The position numbers and the translations under genes are program-made. This document shows positions 1-5,344 of a DNA stretch of 5,344 nt, piece by piece. This stretch comes from a virus (Duplodnaviria > Heunggongvirae > Uroviricota > Caudoviricetes): the IMG/VR virus record IMGVR_UViG_2541047812_000002, positions 1-5,344 of that record. One strand, 5' to 3'. Positions within the stretch are counted from its first letter, which is position 1; every line of letters begins with the position of its first letter. The notes beneath the pieces are model-generated. The model had not been told where the DNA came from, did no database searches, and worked only from the letters and a program-made list of their open reading frames with translations.

Positions 1-73
1 TTTAACCAGGGCGGGTATCGCTCGGTTTCGGGTATAACCTTAGGAAATTTTTTCCCACCTGTAAAGCACTTTT

Positions 74-105
74 TATATAAATCTATAATTATATATTTAT
101 AGATT
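74..105. repeat. Iteron cluster A: four tandem 8-bp AT-rich units (TATATAAA TCTATAAT TATATATT TATAGATT), related to the clusters flanking the par genes
   Basis: Read directly from sequence. 8-bp periodicity with units starting TATA/TCTA. Contains TTATATAAATCTATA (74-88), the exact reverse complement of TATAGATTTATATAA found in clusters B and D. Outer arms AAATCTATAA / TTATAGATTT form a 10-bp inverted repeat. Confidence 0.6.
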
Positions 106-156
106 TTCGATGTTCCCGATATCTACACACCATCAAAACAGCTCAAAATGACACTT

Positions 157-534
157 TTACTCTCTTCGCTTTTTCAAATAGTCGACAACATACGCCCTGG
201 CTTTTGCCAGCTTCCGGCGATACTGTCTGAGACTAAGAGAAAGGGCGTGGGCTTTATCAATATGCGGTGCATTTATGTCGAGGCCCCGAATCTCCCACGC
301 CCCGTATTCAATTCGGACAACCAGCGCCGCAGTCTCATCAACTACCGTGAGGGCCGTCACCGCTCCCTCGATACTGGTTTCCAGTGAGTCATTTGGTGCG
401 CCGCCCCCTCCGGTAAACTGGCAGCGCGTAACCATCATCATTTCTAACATCGACGCGAAACCGCTACGGGCGTTGCAGCCATTGCGCACCCACAGCGCCC
501 ATAGCTCAAACAAGCTATCCAGATCGCGTCTCAC
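157..534 (-). CDS. Putative phage antitermination protein Q-like (short QuuD-type family)
   Basis: 125-aa ORF, last gene of the coupled minus-strand operon (3-nt gap to the upstream gene). N-terminal LFELWALWVRNG motif and helix-rich C-terminus (LSLSLRQYRRKLAKARAYVVDYL) resemble my recollection of the Phage_antitermQ family. Position at the distal end of a cro-led operon fits. Assigned from memory, not a search. Confidence 0.4.
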   Translation of the reverse strand: MRRDLDSLFELWALWVRNGCNARSGFASMLEMMMVTRCQFTGGGGAPNDSLETSIEGAVTALTVVDETAALVVRIEYGAWEIRGLDINAPHIDKAHALSLSLRQYRRKLAKARAYVVDYLKKRRE

Positions 535-537
535 TGT

Positions 538-870
538 TCAGATCTCCCGTATCGTGACGGGATAAAGCGCCTCTACCTGCTTTTTCTTCATGATGTAGAC
601 GTCTGTTCGCACACCTTTAGTGTCGACACAATCAATCGTCCCATCGTCATAAAACACCATGAAATCAAGTTTATAAACGACACCACCTGGCAGATGAAAA
701 GGCACCTGCATAAGAAACGTCACAACGCGGCCAGCTTTTCTCAGTAGCTTCAGTTCGCAGTAGTAATCAGCCTCTTTTTTGCTATCAAAAGAGATATCAT
801 CGACAACAGTTTTTTTATTGCCGTATTTGCTTTTCCTGGTCGCTGGTTTGCGAAAGCCGGTATATCTCAT
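538..870 (-). CDS. DUF1064-family phage protein (putative nuclease/resolvase-like)
   Basis: 110-aa translation contains KYGNKKTVVDDISFDSKKEADYYCELKLLRKAG ... YKLDFMVFYDDGTIDCVDTKGVRTDVYIMKKK ... IREI, matching the conserved pattern I recall for DUF1064 proteins (KYGNKKT..DG..FDSKKEA..Y.EL.LL.KAG ... DF.Y ... DVKG..T..Y..KKK). Start overlaps the upstream gene stop by 4 nt (ATGA). Confidence 0.65.
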   Translation of the reverse strand: MRYTGFRKPATRKSKYGNKKTVVDDISFDSKKEADYYCELKLLRKAGRVVTFLMQVPFHLPGGVVYKLDFMVFYDDGTIDCVDTKGVRTDVYIMKKKQVEALYPVTIREI

Positions 871-1271
871 TTGGTATCCCCTGGTACTTCACCAAGACTA
901 AGATCAAACCCAATTTCGTCTTTAACTGACTGCGGCAACAGCTCCCACGTCTGCGCACACAAAAATTCATCGGTGCCATAACGCTCAACAAAGCGAGCAC
1001 AATTACTCAGGGGAGGGTGACGAACGGCAATATGCGGAGGCACGCGCCCACCACCAGGCACAACACCGCGATGATGTGGTGCGCACAACCCAAAGCTATG
1101 GAAGTGGCAATTCTCATCAACGCTGCCGTAATCAGGATCGTGATGTAGCTCCGTCCACAGCTCTGGATTCTCAATTTCACGGCCATCAATAATGCAAGCT
1201 ATGCAACCCACGTGAGTGAGCACCGCTTGTATATAAAGTTTCTCTTTCTTCGTTGGTGTACGTCCGTTCAT
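867..1271 (-). CDS. Cys/His-rich hypothetical protein, possible Zn-binding phage nuclease-like protein
   Basis: 134-aa ORF in the coupled operon. Contains CIAC, HHD, CHFHSFGLC and HH clusters suggestive of metal binding. AAGGGG Shine-Dalgarno about 5 nt upstream of the ATG. Family not confidently recognised. Confidence 0.5.
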   Translation of the reverse strand: MNGRTPTKKEKLYIQAVLTHVGCIACIIDGREIENPELWTELHHDPDYGSVDENCHFHSFGLCAPHHRGVVPGGGRVPPHIAVRHPPLSNCARFVERYGTDEFLCAQTWELLPQSVKDEIGFDLSLGEVPGDTK

Positions 1272-1504
1272 CAGCGCCCCTTACCATTGATAAAGAGGTT
1301 GAACTCGTTGATTAACTGGACATACATGCTTCTGGCCGCGTAGTTCTTTGCCAGCTCTTTACGGGATGAGATCCCGCAAAACTCACGCAGAATCACAGAG
1401 GCCTCAGAACTGTTTGAAACGTTCTTCCCTGTTTTACTGGTCAGAAAGCGCCAGAATTGGGGATTCTGGCAATGCATCGCAGCACCGCGAACATAACTAC
1501 TCAT
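1271..1504 (-). CDS. Hypothetical small protein (77 aa)
   Basis: ORF in the coupled operon: its start overlaps the upstream stop (ATGA) and its stop shares one nucleotide with the downstream start (TGATG). No recognisable motif. Confidence 0.4.
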   Translation of the reverse strand: MSSYVRGAAMHCQNPQFWRFLTSKTGKNVSNSSEASVILREFCGISSRKELAKNYAARSMYVQLINEFNLFINGKGR

Positions 1505-2016
1505 TGATGGCCCCCGTCATTTCTGGTGCTTTTCACCGTGCGGCTTCTTAAAAACCTGCCATCACGAACAACAGACACTTCTCGTTTACCCAACCTCATT
1601 TCACGGCGGTAACATTCAGAAAATGCCTCGTCCGGCATCATATAAATGCGACGCTTCGCCTCCGTATCCAGAAGGGAACGGCTTGGGGTTACATATAAAA
1701 ACGACTCATCAATAGGGACAAAACCACGAGCAAGAATTGCTGGCAGAATGCCAGGAAGAACGCAGAAAACAGCTCCACGATGCAGCAACATCAGGTACTC
1801 CATGACCTCCGTTATCCCCGTGACTACTGTTACGGTGTCACGTCTGTTACGGCTGGCAACCAGTCGCTGCACACGTCCAATTTTCTGATCTACAGATAGA
1901 TGTTTGCTATCGTTATCAATATGATCGATAGCAAATCCTTTAATCGTTTGATCAAGGTAGTGCACCACCTTCGATTGAATCTGGTGATTATCACCAAAGA
2001 AGGCCAGAATCATCAT
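1501..2016 (-). CDS. Hypothetical protein (171 aa), second gene of the early operon
   Basis: Long ORF whose ATG overlaps the stop of the cro-like gene (ATGATGA). GGGAGG and GAGGA Shine-Dalgarno candidates upstream. No family recognised from the sequence alone. Confidence 0.55.
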   Translation of the reverse strand: MMILAFFGDNHQIQSKVVHYLDQTIKGFAIDHIDNDSKHLSVDQKIGRVQRLVASRNRRDTVTVVTGITEVMEYLMLLHRGAVFCVLPGILPAILARGFVPIDESFLYVTPSRSLLDTEAKRRIYMMPDEAFSECYRREMRLGKREVSVVRDGRFLRSRTVKSTRNDGGHQ

Positions 2017-2507
2017 TCCTCAAGCCTCCCAAGTGCTGAACGCCGGGCGTTGCTAATCTCCTTATGAATCAGCTCGATATCGCTGGAATCTTTATTCTTA
2101 AGCTCCAGCACGGTAATCGCATCACGAACCTCTGAAACGGTTACGTGTGAGTGTTTCCAGCGAGCAATGAATCGCGGACCGCGTAGATTGCAACGCTCCG
2201 CAGGCATCCCCAACTCAGAGAAAACCGCTTTCAGCCTTGATAAGCAGTTAACAGGGAGATTCCCTTTGATCTTGTTCTGCCGAACCGATGTGCCATCGCT
2301 ACGCTGGCGCTGACGTTCGGCAAAATCTGCCGCCCATTGCTGGACGTTAATCCGGCCTTCCGAATACGCCACCAGCAGCGTCAGGTTATCCGCACGAGGG
2401 AATCTCTCGAAGCGATACCAGGCACCAATCAGTGATGACGTAAAGCCAAACTTTCTGGCAACACCAATTTGGCCTCCATTTTCGTCAACCCACTCCTGAA
2501 AGGTCAT
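2013..2507 (-). CDS. Cro/CII-like HTH DNA-binding protein with about 100-aa C-terminal extension
   Basis: 164-aa ORF transcribed divergently from the repressor gene. N-terminus (QIGVARKFGFTSSLIGAWYRF) has the pattern of Cro/YdaS-type HTH proteins. GGAG Shine-Dalgarno 8 nt upstream of the ATG. Promoter and operators lie immediately upstream. Confidence 0.55.
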   Translation of the reverse strand: MTFQEWVDENGGQIGVARKFGFTSSLIGAWYRFERFPRADNLTLLVAYSEGRINVQQWAADFAERQRQRSDGTSVRQNKIKGNLPVNCLSRLKAVFSELGMPAERCNLRGPRFIARWKHSHVTVSEVRDAITVLELKNKDSSDIELIHKEISNARRSALGRLEE

Positions 2508-2526
2508 TTAACGAACTCCAGTTAAA

Positions 2527-2541
2527 ACCACGATATGTGGT
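2527..2541. promoter_or_regulatory. Operator-like palindrome O1 (ACCAC-GATAT-GTGGT)
   Basis: Perfect 5-bp inverted arms ACCAC/GTGGT with a 5-bp spacer. Lies just downstream of the -10 of the putative cro-like promoter, on the minus strand. Confidence 0.5.
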
Positions 2542-2570
2542 ATTAAAACCACATATCGTGAGTTTTTCAA
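2542..2570 (-). promoter_or_regulatory. Putative sigma70 promoter of the cro-like/early operon
   Basis: On the minus strand: -35 TTGAAA (2565-2570), 17-bp spacer, -10 TTTAAT (2542-2547). A T10 tract (A10 on the plus strand, 2576-2585) lies just upstream and could act as a UP element. Operator O2 fills the spacer. Confidence 0.45.
2548..2562. promoter_or_regulatory. Operator-like palindrome O2 (ACCAC-ATATC-GTGAG)
   Basis: Same ACCAC-N5-GTG(G) architecture as O1, with one imperfect arm. Its core is the reverse complement of the O1 core. Occupies 15 of the 17 spacer positions between the -35 and -10 of the putative cro-like promoter. Confidence 0.5.
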
Positions 2571-2628
2571 TGGGCAAAAAAAAAATAACCTTCTATTTGT
2601 GGTCCACCTCTCGTCTTACCATGTGAAA

Positions 2629-2643
2629 ACCACTAAATGTGGT
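2629..2643. promoter_or_regulatory. Operator-like palindrome O3 (ACCAC-TAAAT-GTGGT)
   Basis: Third copy of ACCAC-N5-GTGGT. Sits 5 bp upstream of a TATAAA -10-like hexamer (2648-2653, with TG at 2646-2647) about 28 bp ahead of the repressor ATG. Confidence 0.45.
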
Positions 2644-2680
2644 AATGTATAAATAACCCACCATTCACGATTGATGAGAC

Positions 2681-3337
2681 ATGAAAAGCAACGACGAGAA
2701 CATCAAGAAAGAAATAGGTCTGCGCATTCAGACTCTACGGAAACAATCCGGCATGACTGCCGGAGATCTCCAGCAAGTCACTGGAATAGGCTTAAGCACC
2801 TTGCAGAACTATGAGGCCGGATTAAGACAACCATCTATACCTGCCATCAAGAAAATCGCGCACGCCCTGAAAGCATCAGCGCCTTATATCGCGTGCTTAA
2901 CAGATAACCCGTTCCCACCCCAGAATACTAACGCTCCTGTTATTCCTGGGCTTGTAGCTATAAAAAATGACATAGCATCGCACGCCGGAGAAAAGCCAGT
3001 GCTGGCGATAGAACAGGAGATTCTACGAAGCAAGAACATCAACCCATCGTCTCTGTCAGTTCTCCAGAGCAACGATGAGTTAATGTCACCAACAATATCC
3101 CCTGGCTCCCAAGTCCTGATTGATACAGACGATACAGAGATTCATGAGGGGATCTATGCCCTTGAAGACAGAAATGGCCTGGTTGTTTTGAGGCACTGTA
3201 GAGTCATACCGGGTGACAATGCTGTTATGCTGTCAACCGAAAGGGATGCTGAAATGAACACTAAGCATCTGAATAACGAGGAATTTAAGCGTTATAAAGT
3301 TCTGGGCCGCGTAGTTAGTGTTGTCAACTGGTTATGA
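2681..3337 (+). CDS. CI-like transcriptional repressor: N-terminal XRE-type HTH plus C-terminal S24 (LexA/CI)-like domain, apparently catalytically degenerate
   Basis: 218-aa ORF. Residues about 11-70 have the classic XRE HTH pattern (GMTAGDLQQVTGIGLSTLQNYEAGLRQPSIPAIKKIAHAL). The C-terminal 90 aa align to the S24 fold (LMSPTISPGSQVLIDTD ... YKVLGRVVSV), but the GDSM serine position reads DELM and the conserved lysine position is R/H. Confidence 0.7.
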   Translation: MKSNDENIKKEIGLRIQTLRKQSGMTAGDLQQVTGIGLSTLQNYEAGLRQPSIPAIKKIAHALKASAPYIACLTDNPFPPQNTNAPVIPGLVAIKNDIASHAGEKPVLAIEQEILRSKNINPSSLSVLQSNDELMSPTISPGSQVLIDTDDTEIHEGIYALEDRNGLVVLRHCRVIPGDNAVMLSTERDAEMNTKHLNNEEFKRYKVLGRVVSVVNWL

Positions 3338-3379
3338 TACACAGCACGGCGAAAGCCGTGCATTTCTACGCTCAAAAAA

Positions 3380-3394
3380 ACCACATTTTGTGGT
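3380..3394. promoter_or_regulatory. Operator-like palindrome O4 (ACCAC-ATTTT-GTGGT)
   Basis: Fourth copy of the motif, within the longer palindrome AAAACCACATTTTGTGGTTTT, between the repressor stop and the next gene. A TTGACA hexamer follows at 3395-3400, and AGAGG (3419-3423) precedes the ATG at 3430. Confidence 0.45.
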
Positions 3395-3429
3395 TTTGAC
3401 AACATGTGAAAGTATAAAAGAGGCTACGC

Positions 3430-3804
3430 ATGGAATTACATACAGCCAATAAAAACGAAACTCTGATCACTGCTGGAATCGAAATCCAAGCGTTGAACAT
3501 AGCGATTGAGTGTATGTTATGCCAAATCATTGATAATGAGAAAGATATCGACTGGATATCATCTACCCTTCATCTTGCTTACGAGCAAAAAGCCTGCCTC
3601 AAAACAGCCTTACAATACGATGTGCCTTCTGTATCAAAGCTGTGCCAGTCATTGATGGCATATAACAGAGCTATCATTTCTGTATGCCTCATGATTCTCG
3701 ATGAGAATACCCCTCTTAGCGACCGCTCAGAAGCAGCTCTAACCCTCTCACGTAAACAGCGACAGCTAGCAAATCAACTGATATCAACGATAGCTGACCT
3801 CTGA
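3430..3804 (+). CDS. Hypothetical protein (124 aa) downstream of the repressor gene
   Basis: ORF with a good Shine-Dalgarno (AAGAGG, 6-nt spacing) and a stem-loop terminator immediately after its stop. Predicted mostly helical. No family recognised. Confidence 0.5.
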   Translation: MELHTANKNETLITAGIEIQALNIAIECMLCQIIDNEKDIDWISSTLHLAYEQKACLKTALQYDVPSVSKLCQSLMAYNRAIISVCLMILDENTPLSDRSEAALTLSRKQRQLANQLISTIADL

Positions 3805-3808
3805 CTGC

Positions 3809-3828
3809 AAGCGGGCTAACGCCCGCTT
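3809..3828 (+). terminator. Putative intrinsic terminator (stem AAGCGGGC / GCCCGCTT, loop TAAC)
   Basis: Perfect 8-bp GC-rich stem with a 4-nt loop starting 5 nt after the stop at 3804. Followed by AT-rich sequence, though not a clean T-run. Confidence 0.45.
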
Positions 3829-3859
3829 ATATGATTATAGATTTATATAATTATATAAA
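3828..3859. repeat. Iteron cluster B: four tandem 8-bp units (TATATGAT TATAGATT TATATAAT TATATAAA)
   Basis: Read directly from sequence. The 23-mer TATAGATTTATATAATTATATAA (3836-3858) recurs with one mismatch in cluster C. Confidence 0.6.
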
Positions 3860-3881
3860 ACGCTTTTCATCCGCCAAAAAG

Positions 3882-3910
3882 TTGGTTATGCTTACCTCGT
3901 TCTATAAATA
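3882..3910 (+). promoter_or_regulatory. Putative par operon promoter overlapping iteron cluster C
   Basis: -35-like TTGGTT (3882-3887) and a -10-like TATAAA/TAAATA within 3903-3910 at 15-17 bp spacing, between iteron clusters B and C, about 45 bp upstream of the parA-like start. Weak consensus match; inference only. Confidence 0.3.
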
Positions 3911-3932
3911 TAGATTTATAGAATTATATAAC
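3901..3932. repeat. Iteron cluster C: tandem 8-bp units (TCTATAAA TATAGATT TATAGAAT TATATAAC)
   Basis: Read directly from sequence. 3909-3931 (TATAGATTTATAGAATTATATAA) differs from the cluster B 23-mer at one position. Ends 23 bp before the parA-like start. Confidence 0.6.
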
Positions 3933-3954
3933 CAAACACATGGAGTCTCGACAA

Positions 3955-4608
3955 ATGACTATCTCTGTAGGTATTTTCAACGGAAAAGGCGGCGTAACCA
4001 AATCAACAATTGCCCGTGCTTTAGCAGTTGCTTATGCAAAGGCTGGCTGGAATGTATGCCTGATCGATATGGATGTGCTTAACGGAACGGTAACGCGTTG
4101 GGTACAACGCAGAATGGCCAACAATATCGAACCAGCAATCGCGGCGCAGCCGTGCGGCACACCATCACAAGTCCAGAAAATCATCGAATCAGAAGTATAC
4201 GACCTGGTTATCGTCGATGGCGGTGCCTACGCATCTGAATCAGTACCGAAGCTCTCTGAATTTCTGGATATGGTTATTTTGCCAACCAGATTCTCTACCG
4301 ATGACCTGGAAACCACCGTTAACACAGCTCACGGCATCGTTAAAAAGGGTGTACCAATCAAGAAAATTTGCATGGTGTTTTCCGGCGCGGCTGAAAACGA
4401 AGCTGACTATATTGAAGCCCAAGAGTACCTGGCTAATACGCCATACTTTGTTGTCGATAAGTACATTCCCCACAAGCCAGCTCTGAGCAAAGCTCAGGAT
4501 AAGGGCTTAAGCCTTATTGAGTGCTCATACGTTGCGCCACGCAAAAAGGCAGACGATGTTATCCAGGGGATTATCAATCAGCTTGAGGCTCTGACTACTG
4601 CCGCGTAA
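3955..4608 (+). CDS. parA: ParA/ParF-family partition ATPase (small, type Ib; deviant Walker A)
   Basis: N-terminus MTISVGIFNGKGGVTKSTIARALAVAYAKAGWNVCLIDMD carries the deviant Walker A motif KGGxxK[ST] typical of ParA/MinD ATPases. About 217 aa, the size of ParF-type proteins. I prefer the ATG at 3955 (GGAG 9 nt upstream) over the track's ATG at 3940, which has no Shine-Dalgarno. Confidence 0.85.
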   Translation: MTISVGIFNGKGGVTKSTIARALAVAYAKAGWNVCLIDMDVLNGTVTRWVQRRMANNIEPAIAAQPCGTPSQVQKIIESEVYDLVIVDGGAYASESVPKLSEFLDMVILPTRFSTDDLETTVNTAHGIVKKGVPIKKICMVFSGAAENEADYIEAQEYLANTPYFVVDKYIPHKPALSKAQDKGLSLIECSYVAPRKKADDVIQGIINQLEALTTAA

Positions 4609-4640
4609 TATATAATTATAGTTTTATAGATTTATATAAA
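4609..4640. repeat. Iteron cluster D: four tandem 8-bp units (TATATAAT TATAGTTT TATAGATT TATATAAA) filling the parA-parG spacer
   Basis: Read directly from sequence. Begins immediately after the parA-like stop (4606-4608) and ends 11 bp before the parG-like ATG. Shares TATAGATTTATATAA with cluster B. Confidence 0.6.
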
Positions 4641-4651
4641 AGGGGATACAC

Positions 4652-4900
4652 ATGGCCGCACCATCAAAACCACCGAAAAAGAACAGCAAAGGCGTACCGC
4701 CATCAATCGAACAACCGCAGGTTTTCGACCCGACTGAAACGCCGACCAGAACCAAATCAGGTGGGGCACAAATGGCGTTTAACGTCGACCCTGAATTTAA
4801 ACGCGAGTACAAAACGTTCGCCAGCTCAATGGATATGTCATTGAAAGAAGTGCTGACAAAATCTTTTGAGTTACTCAAGGCTCAATACAACCAGAAGTAA
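4652..4900 (+). CDS. ParG-like ribbon-helix-helix centromere-binding protein (82 aa)
   Basis: Immediately downstream of the ParA-like gene, with an AAGGGG Shine-Dalgarno. C-terminal 40 aa (MAFNVDPEFKREYKTFASSMDMSLKEVLTKSFELLKAQY) fits a beta-strand/helix/helix RHH pattern similar to TP228 ParG as I recall it. N-terminal 40 aa is a Pro/Lys-rich, probably disordered tail. Confidence 0.6.
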   Translation: MAAPSKPPKKNSKGVPPSIEQPQVFDPTETPTRTKSGGAQMAFNVDPEFKREYKTFASSMDMSLKEVLTKSFELLKAQYNQK

Positions 4901-4962
4901 GAGAAGGTGACGGCCTCCAGCGCCAACTGTTGGCCGTCGCGACACAACAAGGGGAATTTGTT

Positions 4963-5112
4963 ATGTCCGAGCAACAATATACACGGTTACTGAAAACTCG
5001 TCTAACCGACCTCAAACGGCTGCAAGCTGGTTGCTTATTTGCCCTGCTATCTACCAGGCCAGAATGGGTACGTGAAGCAGTTCTGAAAGGTTTAATGCGC
5101 TCCAGCGTTTAA
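4963..5112 (+). CDS. Hypothetical small protein (49 aa from the ATG at 4963; the track ORF starts at 4930)
   Basis: AAGGGGA Shine-Dalgarno 7 nt upstream of the ATG at 4963. Stop codon TAA (5110-5112) lies 9 bp before the IS terminal repeat. No motif recognised. Confidence 0.3.
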   Translation: MSEQQYTRLLKTRLTDLKRLQAGCLFALLSTRPEWVREAVLKGLMRSSV

Positions 5113-5120
5113 ATTCAACC

Positions 5121-5344
5121 GGCTTTGTTGAATAAATCGAACTTTTGCTGAGTTGAAGGATCAGATCACGCATCCTCCCGACAACACAGACCATTCCGTG
5201 GCAAAGCAAAAGTTCAGAATCACCAACTGGTCCACCTACAACAAAGCTCTCATCAACCGTGGCTCCCTCACTTTCTGGCTGGATGATGAAGCGATTCAGG
5301 CCTGGTATGAGTCGGCAACGCCTTCATCACGAGGAAGGCCCCAG
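5121..5344 (+). mobile_element. IS903-group insertion sequence (IS5 family), left end; partial, continues past the window
   Basis: 5121-5138 GGCTTTGTTGAATAAATC matches the 18-bp terminal inverted repeat of IS903 as I recall it. The following 200 bp match the known IS903 left end with a few substitutions. Confidence 0.85.
5198..5344 (+). CDS. tnp: IS903-family (IS5 family) transposase, N-terminal 49 codons (partial; GTG start; runs off the window)
   Basis: Translation from GTG 5198: VAKQKFRITNWSTYNKALINRGSLTFWLDDEAIQAWYESATPSSRGRPQ, near-identical to the IS903 transposase N-terminus as I remember it (MAKQKFKITNWSTYNKALINRGSLTFWLDDEAIQAWYESATPSSRGRPQ). Absent from the ORF track because it lacks an ATG and is truncated by the window edge. 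Confidence 0.8.
   Translation, partial: MAKQKFRITNWSTYNKALINRGSLTFWLDDEAIQAWYESATPSSRGRPQ

Follow-up and report, generated by a model that had tools for sequence, protein, structure and literature searches.

Why should Cro, the textbook minimal regulator, carry a second folded domain? The question is raised by a stretch of caudoviral DNA of 5,344 nucleotides (IMG/VR record IMGVR_UViG_2541047812_000002, positions 1 to 5,344; hereafter 'the window'), in which the gene standing in the cro position of a phage immunity region encodes a protein of 164 amino acids (2013..2507, minus strand, from an ATG start to a stop codon at 2013-2015). The element that carries it is a phage-plasmid of E. coli, about 48 kb long. 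The original prediction, made from the sequence alone, was that a Cro/YdaS-like helix-turn-helix (HTH) occupied the first 60 residues and was followed by about 100 extra residues, perhaps making the protein a fused regulator with a CII-like or antirepressor-like domain. We find a predicted Cro-family domain at the N-terminus and, behind it, a conserved domain that matches nothing known. The explanation that best accommodates both, to which we assign a probability of roughly 0.4, is a Cro-equivalent repressor with an accessory self-association domain.

A conserved gene for a two-domain protein

The reading frame is that of a real gene. A ribosome-binding site read from the sequence (GGAG, 2516..2519, minus strand) lies 8 nucleotides before the ATG, and RefSeq lists the protein at full length as hypothetical (WP_001523091.1) in complete plasmids and phages. 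Residues 1-164 align with positions 1-164 of the profile of phrog_7452, a family whose function is given as unknown (E 3.1e-104), and the C-terminal domain alone matches the same family at E 2.2e-52. Among 5,426 complete E. coli genomes, 71 carry it, at 72 places, of which 71 are on plasmids. Its full-length frame is retained in 221 near-identical sequences and in 12 relatives at 71-99% identity, where insertions and deletions are of whole codons and fall in residues 64-76 only, while full-length two-domain relatives reach down to 29% identity. Against relatives at 73-76% identity, the proportion of synonymous differences (pS) is 0.7-0.9, i.e., saturated, in both domains, and that of non-synonymous differences (pN) is 0.11-0.12 in the N-terminal domain, 0.16-0.17 in the C-terminal domain and 0.28-0.41 in the linker (residues 64-78). 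This pattern indicates that both halves of the gene are under purifying selection and that the linker is relaxed. An internal start that would yield a conventional short Cro was looked for and not found, the sole internal methionine (M101) being isoleucine or leucine in relatives; nor is there a conserved in-frame slippery heptamer in the gene across relatives.

Five naturally disrupted alleles are known (P0013, P0014, P0015, P0029 and P0009), and three of these five events remove the C-terminal domain only. P0013 is interrupted at about codon 86 by a Tn3-family transposon of about 6 kb (locus L036, OZ039804.1, 8001-14481), whose cargo comprises a 698-residue ORC/CDC6-like gene, a resolvase and a transposase. 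The frameshift alleles P0014 and P0015 each encode 91 residues, consisting of the N-terminal domain and linker, and one of the two frameshifts falls at an AAAGGG run; two further alleles are disrupted by N-terminal frameshifts. Such alleles may be locked-in plasmids or sequencing errors.

Structure prediction divides the protein into three parts. The AlphaFold model, which is of the monomer, had a mean predicted local distance difference test (pLDDT) score of 56.7 with 12 close sequences and 88.7 once distant full-length sequences were added. The N domain (residues 1-70; 2298..2507, minus strand) has five helices (3-9, 12-20, 24-31, 39-48 and 55-70), of which 12-20 and 24-31 form the HTH, and its pLDDT exceeds 90 throughout. 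The linker (residues 71-84; 2256..2297, minus strand) is basic, variable in sequence and length, and predicted to be disordered, with pLDDT below 50 at residues 73-76. The C domain (residues 85-164; 2016..2255, minus strand) has four helices (89-98, 103-120, 124-136 and 144-163) at a pLDDT of about 88-95. Across residues 64-78, which include the last part of helix 5, identity between close relatives is 38%, compared with 75-80% for the domains, and the predicted template modelling (pTM) score of 0.53 for the whole model fits two independent domains. Computed isoelectric points also differ along the chain, from 5.1 for residues 1-63 to 9.7 for residues 79-164. The extra region foreseen in the original prediction, including the peptide quoted there (CNLRGPRFIARWKHSHVTVSEVRDAIT, residues 106-132), is therefore genuine; its length needs correcting only slightly, from about 100 residues to 94 (linker plus C domain).

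The N domain was compared with known structures by fold and by sequence profile. Its top fold match in the PDB (Foldseek) is Xfaso 1 Cro (3bd1; probability 0.96, target template modelling score 0.64-0.66), followed by XPH1, YdaS and N15 Cro. Profile matches to PDB sequences are weak, and comprise P22 Cro (E 0.009), XPH1 (0.014), lambda Cro (0.022), Xfaso 1 Cro (0.034) and Pfl 6 Cro (0.095), with XPH2 also returned. The 164-residue protein has no Pfam match, YdaS_toxin (PF15943) included, and weak Pfam YdaS matches appear in 3 of 18 family members (best E 0.029) and in one short homologue (P0030). Each match is weak, but they are jointly consistent, and on the model the N domain is a Cro-family all-alpha HTH. 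The expected Cro/YdaS-like HTH is thus in its place, with five predicted helices within residues 1-70 and Cro-family matches in both sequence and fold. The statement that classical Cro proteins have 60-80 residues likewise holds, since the matched PDB chains have 61-79 and short homologues of the N domain, described below, have 70-82; this is a single-domain size that the short relatives share and the 164-residue protein exceeds.

An orphan C-terminal domain

The C domain appears to be a lineage-specific orphan, judging from the model, the alignment and a series of empty searches. Pfam, NCBIfam and PHROGs, queried with the whole protein and with 12 diverse C domains, returned nothing for it beyond its own phrog_7452. 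PDB sequences, searched with the single protein and three profiles, gave matches to the N domain only, EF-hand matches to the C domain being at chance level (E >0.3). Foldseek comparison of the two-domain model with the PDB and BFVD gave only HTH/Cro-type or low-probability two-domain matches, and a run on the model with a mean pLDDT of 56.7 gave nothing further. No free-standing or otherwise fused C domain was found by exhaustive HMMER and word-indexed profile searches, apparent C-only proteins being fragments of disrupted or contig-edge genes, and a six-frame hidden Markov model search of the full plasmid and the fetched loci found no paralogue. The positions conserved in the domain are L92, E98, R116, W117, V124, E126, R128, A130, H148, R155 and L162, which include the motifs R116-W117 and V124-x-E126-x-R128; its isoelectric point is about 9.5-10 in most members and 6.3-8.2 in three.

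The profile searches and structure prediction proposed at the outset therefore lead to a Cro-type N domain and a four-helix C domain without a match. That the extra region would have no assigned function was correctly anticipated, and it proves to be a genuine conserved domain that libraries, profiles and fold searches connect with no known one. The identities suggested for it fared less well. A fused regulator finds no free-standing C-domain homologue that would show gene fusion. A CII-like domain was rejected, as alignment of the profile with lambda CII gave an hhalign probability of 0.5% and no CII family was matched in Pfam or PHROGs. Nor was an antirepressor-like domain recovered: among 12 diverse C domains, none of Ant, KilA-N, Bro-N, ORF6N and Rha appeared at E <= 10 in Pfam or PHROGs, and no other family was matched. 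Origin as a duplicate of the N domain was also considered and rejected (hhalign probability 0.7%).

Relatives with and without the C domain

When 1.84 billion representatives were searched exhaustively with HMMER, no more than 27 relatives came to light, and the GTDB representative genomes yielded none. About ten are full-length two-domain proteins of 159-196 residues at 29-41% identity, which we call the long form (N domain, linker and C domain); about a dozen have 70-82 residues and match residues 1-70 only, and constitute the short form (N domain alone). The short homologues (P0027-P0041) are 23-40% identical to residues 1-70 (alignment A4) and end in a short basic tail where the long-form linker begins. 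A separate curiosity is a protein of 1,755 residues (P0026), in which five separate stretches match profile positions 9-82, i.e., N domain and linker.

Long-form and short-form genes occupy the same circuit. At 13 loci, including IMG/VR contigs of 45-47 kb, the long-form gene always stands in the Cro position and is followed by homologues of the 171-residue, Ref and Q-like genes of the window; the 77-residue gene was not detected in two of these loci (L009 and L010). Short-form genes have the same position opposite a CI-like gene, with homologues of the 171-residue, 77-residue and Q-like genes downstream, although not all were detected at each locus. Gene calls at three short-form loci (L011, L012 and L035) give the same 4-nucleotide overlap with the next gene as in the window, and L035 also has the window's arrangement of cI, small open reading frame (ORF), ParA and small ORF. 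Perfect ACCAC-N5-GTGGT palindromes are present in the switch regions of L011, L012 and L033, and adjoin HTH-only homologues of 70-72 residues; at the remaining loci, long and short, the operator takes A[AC]CAC/ACTAC forms. As operators of one family accompany the HTH-only relatives too, the C domain should be dispensable for operator recognition. In outline, these loci would amount to a natural version of the truncation experiment that the original prediction called for, and seem to provide a partial answer to it.

The two domains also differ in the company they keep. Identity to distant relatives is 47-57% for the C domain, similar to that of backbone genes, compared with 33-40% for the N domain and 27-31% for CI, and in a neighbour-joining tree of the N domain (66 columns, no bootstrap) the window clade falls among the short forms. 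We infer from these comparisons that immunity is exchanged as a module made up of HTH, CI and operators, and that the C domain moves with the backbone of the early operon and would therefore not contact the specificity determinants. A Ref-like nuclease accompanies the C domain, being present at 13 of 13 long-form loci and at 0 of the 5 short-form loci that are informative, although this may reflect ancestry rather than function, the short-form elements being a more distant group. Two other correlates of the long form were rejected: plasmid lifestyle, because short-form L032 and L035 also carry ParA, and loss of the S24 catalytic serine from CI, because it is missing from 4 of 6 short-form loci as well.

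The distant long-form loci L009 and L010 (the locus of P0022) are arranged differently, in that the divergent neighbour of the Cro-like gene is a ParA homologue and not a CI-like gene. Their spacer contains inverted arrays of an 8-bp repeat, AAGAAAGC, which recur 1.2 kb away. A motif shared by the switch region and the sequence upstream of repA in L010 was at chance level.

The switch region and its operators

Assignment of the gene to the Cro position is borne out by its surroundings. It heads the lytic operon and is divergent from a gene for a CI-like repressor of 218 residues, to which library matches assign HTH_3 and a degenerate S24-like domain (2681..3337, plus strand); the 173-bp spacer between the two contains two perfect and one imperfect ACCAC-N5-GTGGT palindromes, and the arrangement is conserved in relatives. 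Three perfect sites were observed in the window against 0.10 expected, and the full 48-kb plasmid has only four, all in intergenic control regions. Candidate operator O1 (perfect, ACCACGATATGTGGT, 2527..2541) lies directly downstream of the -10 element of a candidate lytic promoter, at its putative start site. O2, an imperfect inverted repeat (ACCACATATCGTGAG, 2548..2562), is 21 bp from O1, centre to centre, and fills most of the spacer of that promoter. O3 (perfect, ACCACTAAATGTGGT, 2629..2643) is just upstream of a TATAAA sequence (2648-2653) that could be a promoter element of the cI-like gene. The candidate lytic promoter (2542..2570, minus strand) reads as a -35 of TTGAAA (2565-2570), a 17-nucleotide spacer and a -10 of TTTAAT (2542-2547), and a TTGAAA/TTGATA -35-like hexamer occurs at the equivalent site in relatives. 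Between O2 and O3 there is a run of ten A (T on the minus strand) at 2574-2585, which is not conserved in a relative at 76% identity (L023).

The other two perfect sites lie at plasmid control regions. A distal candidate operator (ACCACATTTTGTGGT, 3380..3394), conserved in L023, L024 and L017, is found between the cI-like gene and an operon of a 124-residue ORF and parA. The fourth site, ACCACGTTACGTGGT, which has the same TTAAAA flank, is about 37 nucleotides upstream of repA (40805-40819 of L014, NZ_CP080230.1) and recurs with a different spacer in L023 (2045-2059). Both the par-side and the repA-side sites are conserved in relatives with changed spacers. The former suggests that the partition genes are regulated by the switch proteins; the latter could reflect control of repA, or of an antisense copA promoter, by the immunity regulator, or could be an RNA stem. 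Given conserved palindromes at both par and repA, the switch regulators probably control partition and replication too, and this is a logic familiar from N15.

When the CI-like repressor is aligned with LexA and lambda CI, leucine replaces the S24 catalytic serine and arginine replaces the lysine, the alignment near the lysine being uncertain. The catalytic serine is lost from the CI-like protein in 9 of 9 long-form loci.

The 164-residue gene heads a leftward operon and, in the full plasmid, one strand carries every gene from 30717 down to and including those for the tail. It is followed by a gene of 171 codons (phrog_7047; 1501..2016, minus strand; from ORF calls and PHROGs), whose start overlaps the preceding stop codon as ATGA (2013-2016), and then by genes for a 77-residue protein, the Ref-like nuclease, a DUF1064 protein, a 125-residue protein, and lysis and virion proteins. 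The 125-residue protein (window 157-534), encoded at the end of the early operon, is kept by long-form and short-form loci alike. Its only resemblances are faint ones, to the PA0613 family (E 2.5e-4, which is below cut-off) and to Q-type antiterminators (phrog_79, E 0.09); it is a candidate late-gene regulator.

The source element

Positions 1-5120 of the window are identical (100%) to E. coli plasmid pP136-7 (NZ_CP080230.1, 48,077 bp), and 98.8% identical to Yersinia phages vB_YpM_39, 41 and 44, each of about 49 kb. The full plasmid encodes myovirus head, tail, lysis and terminase proteins together with an IncFII-type repA, parA and a toxin-antitoxin pair; this combination of virion genes with repA and parA on one plasmid makes it a phage-plasmid. 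It is probably a member of the p-p47 family, although the preprint describing that family gives no accessions. According to this preprint of August 2026, p-p47 comprises E. coli phage-plasmids of 47-54 kb that are not related to any of the ten types of phage-plasmid already established, have a copy number under RepA/CopA control, are not induced by mitomycin C or ciprofloxacin, and spread bla-TEM-1, with heteroresistance being determined by their copy number (10.64898/2026.08.19.745698). The immunity region was not analysed there, but CopA/CopT are placed in the repA leader, where the fourth perfect palindrome falls (10.64898/2026.08.19.745698). Loss of the S24 catalytic serine from the CI-like protein fits the reported non-induction.

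Other features of the window concern the element at large. Positions 5121-5344 are one end of an insertion sequence of the IS903 family (identity to the IS903 copies in P7 and HK022, 92-95%), and homology to all related plasmids ends at 5120; this copy of the phage-plasmid therefore has an insertion downstream of its par region. An AT-rich repeat, TATAGATTTATA(T/G)AATTATATA, forms clusters at 74-106, 3828-3860, 3901-3941 and 4609-4649. Clusters flank the parA and 82-residue genes, and a further cluster lies about 3.7 kb away, beside the Q-like gene. They are probably centromere or par-operator sites, although this leaves the distal copy unexplained.

A proposed role for each domain

We consider it very probable that the N domain has the Cro role, i.e., that it is the lytic-side repressor of the immunity switch. 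In the explanation that we prefer, the N domain and basic tail would be the complete operator-binding unit of a lambda-type switch. By binding O3 the Cro-like protein would switch off the cI-like gene, and by binding O1/O2 it would restrain its own promoter; it may also bind the palindromes upstream of the parA operon and repA. The C domain would be an accessory module acquired in this lineage; it would hold Cro subunits together, as a dimer or in higher order, and so raise occupancy and cooperativity at phased and distant operators, while not itself recognising DNA sequence. On their own, all-alpha Cro proteins (P22 Cro, for example) form weak dimers, and oligomerisation is the usual task of the second domain in phage HTH repressors that have two. 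It is this usual role, and the existence of phased and distant operators, that leads us to favour self-association for the C domain; taken singly, that part of the proposal is tentative, and we would put it short of an even chance.

Several points weigh against this explanation. Self-association is argued from a monomer prediction and by analogy, and library and fold searches match the C domain with no known oligomerisation domain. The short homologues evidently work without a C domain, and so the dimerisation needed to bind a palindrome must reside in the N domain. The many conserved charged residues of the C domain, which is basic in most members, would suit a partner surface or a nucleic-acid surface too. 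Either the CI-like or the Cro-like protein could be what binds ACCAC-N5-GTGGT. Finally, the promoter assignments come from reading the sequence, and a promoter consensus scan did not report the candidate promoters, in the lytic case because the -10 lacks A at position 2.

Nearly as likely as self-association is that the C domain serves as a hetero-interaction module. It would bring the DNA-bound Cro domain into contact with some conserved partner (for example, RNA polymerase, a host factor, the coupled 171-residue protein, the Ref nuclease or RepA) and thereby add activation or another output. Such an effector module would be expected to be conserved with the backbone genes and not with the immunity module, as the C domain is, and several of its conserved residues are charged. 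Its association with the Ref-like nuclease points the same way, as does the fact that short forms work without it, which is what an add-on output would predict; besides, apart from repA the element carries no module for lytic replication, and repA has an operator beside it. However, the association with Ref may be a matter of shared ancestry, given that the short-form Q-like protein is also more distant (31-39% identity, compared with 41-64%). Some conserved polar residues look structural on our reading, e.g., a capping box (T/S-x-x-E) at 123-126, and a partner is not indicated by any homology.

It is unlikely that the C domain is an auxiliary nucleic-acid binder, that is, a second and non-canonical helix-turn-helix or a helix-extension-helix (HeH) contacting DNA near the operators, or RNA. 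The high isoelectric point of the domain in most members, set beside the acidic residues 1-63 of the window's protein, is suggestive, as are a helix-GxP-helix segment (89-120) and the conserved R116, R128, H148 and R155. Yet no significant match to HTH, SAP/HeH or winged-helix domains was obtained, the best HeH match (E 0.18) being in 1 of 12 members and in a different segment, and the lack of relationship to the protein's own N domain, noted above, argues similarly. In three members the isoelectric point is 6.3-8.2, and on reading the switch regions we saw no extra DNA motif that is present in the long-form set and absent from the short-form set.

Less likely again is that the C domain is a new kind of effector, through which the lytic switch would be coupled to functions of the plasmid. 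Anchored by the Cro HTH at repA (the copA/copT region) and at par, it would release copy-number control or shut off partition in the lytic phase. If true, this coupling would supply the lytic replication switch that the phage-plasmid otherwise lacks.

Improbable, too, is a fusion of Cro with a lysogeny activator resembling CII, or with a domain of the antirepressor type that acts on the CI-like repressor. Library matches identify no separate cII-like gene in the operon. The CI-like repressors of long-form loci are without the S24 catalytic serine and lysine, and the failure of mitomycin C and ciprofloxacin to induce p-p47 (10.64898/2026.08.19.745698) means that some non-SOS route of CI inactivation is needed. 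Beyond the negative searches for both kinds of domain, however, divergence is far greater among the CI-like proteins than in the C domain, and this speaks against a contact under co-evolution; at several short-form loci, too, CI lacks the catalytic serine; and the element already carries an antirepressor-type gene of the ORF6N/Rha kind.

Scarcely credible, finally, is that the long frame is an artefact of two genes fused by error, or that its true product is a short Cro made by internal initiation or recoding: rare alleles do encode just the N domain and linker (P0014 and P0015 by frameshift, P0013 by transposon insertion), but the retained frame, whole-codon indels and purifying selection on the C domain contradict an artefact, and M101 is not conserved, no conserved slippery heptamer exists, and an internal start would yield a C fragment and not a Cro.

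Comparison with known systems and significance

P22 Cro (1rzs), Xfaso 1 Cro (3bd1) and N15 Cro (2hin, 6on0) have the same five-helix HTH fold as the N domain. The all-alpha Cro proteins have the same genetic position too, at the head of the lytic operon, divergent from the repressor gene and with palindromic operators between. They are single-domain proteins (61-79 residues as PDB chains), whereas the 164-residue protein, whose DNA binding is a prediction, adds a 14-residue linker and an 80-residue folded domain. YdaS of prophage CP-933P (8co2, 8c7k; PF15943), which is a fold match, likewise combines a Cro-like N-terminal HTH with extra C-terminal residues, but its tail is short and is not known to be a conserved four-helix domain. 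The short N-domain homologues share position, downstream genes and operator family with the protein described here, but their operons are without the Ref-like nuclease, and they are themselves without the C domain.

In its order of N-terminal HTH, linker and C-terminal domain, the 164-residue protein resembles repressors of the lambda CI type and CII of coliphage 186, by analogy only. In those proteins (186 CII has 169 residues) the C-terminal domain mediates oligomerisation and cooperativity. The C domain has no sequence or fold similarity to S24 or lambda CII, however, and the 164-residue protein belongs to the lytic side of the switch.

PHROGs and RefSeq already had the family on record, without a name, as phrog_7452 and as hypothetical proteins, and a literature search with the protein accession and the names of the Yersinia phages found nothing. 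As far as we could find, recognition of a Cro fold joined to an orphan domain, of HTH-only counterparts in the same circuit, and of the operator set has not been described previously. The practical gain is modest: with a domain boundary and an operator set defined, direct experiments are possible. A Cro with a conserved, unmatched second domain, and HTH-only relatives in the same circuit, is nevertheless a clean system in which to study functions added to a lytic-switch repressor. With immunity operators at the par and repA control regions, this regulator bears on the choice between maintenance as a plasmid and production of phage.

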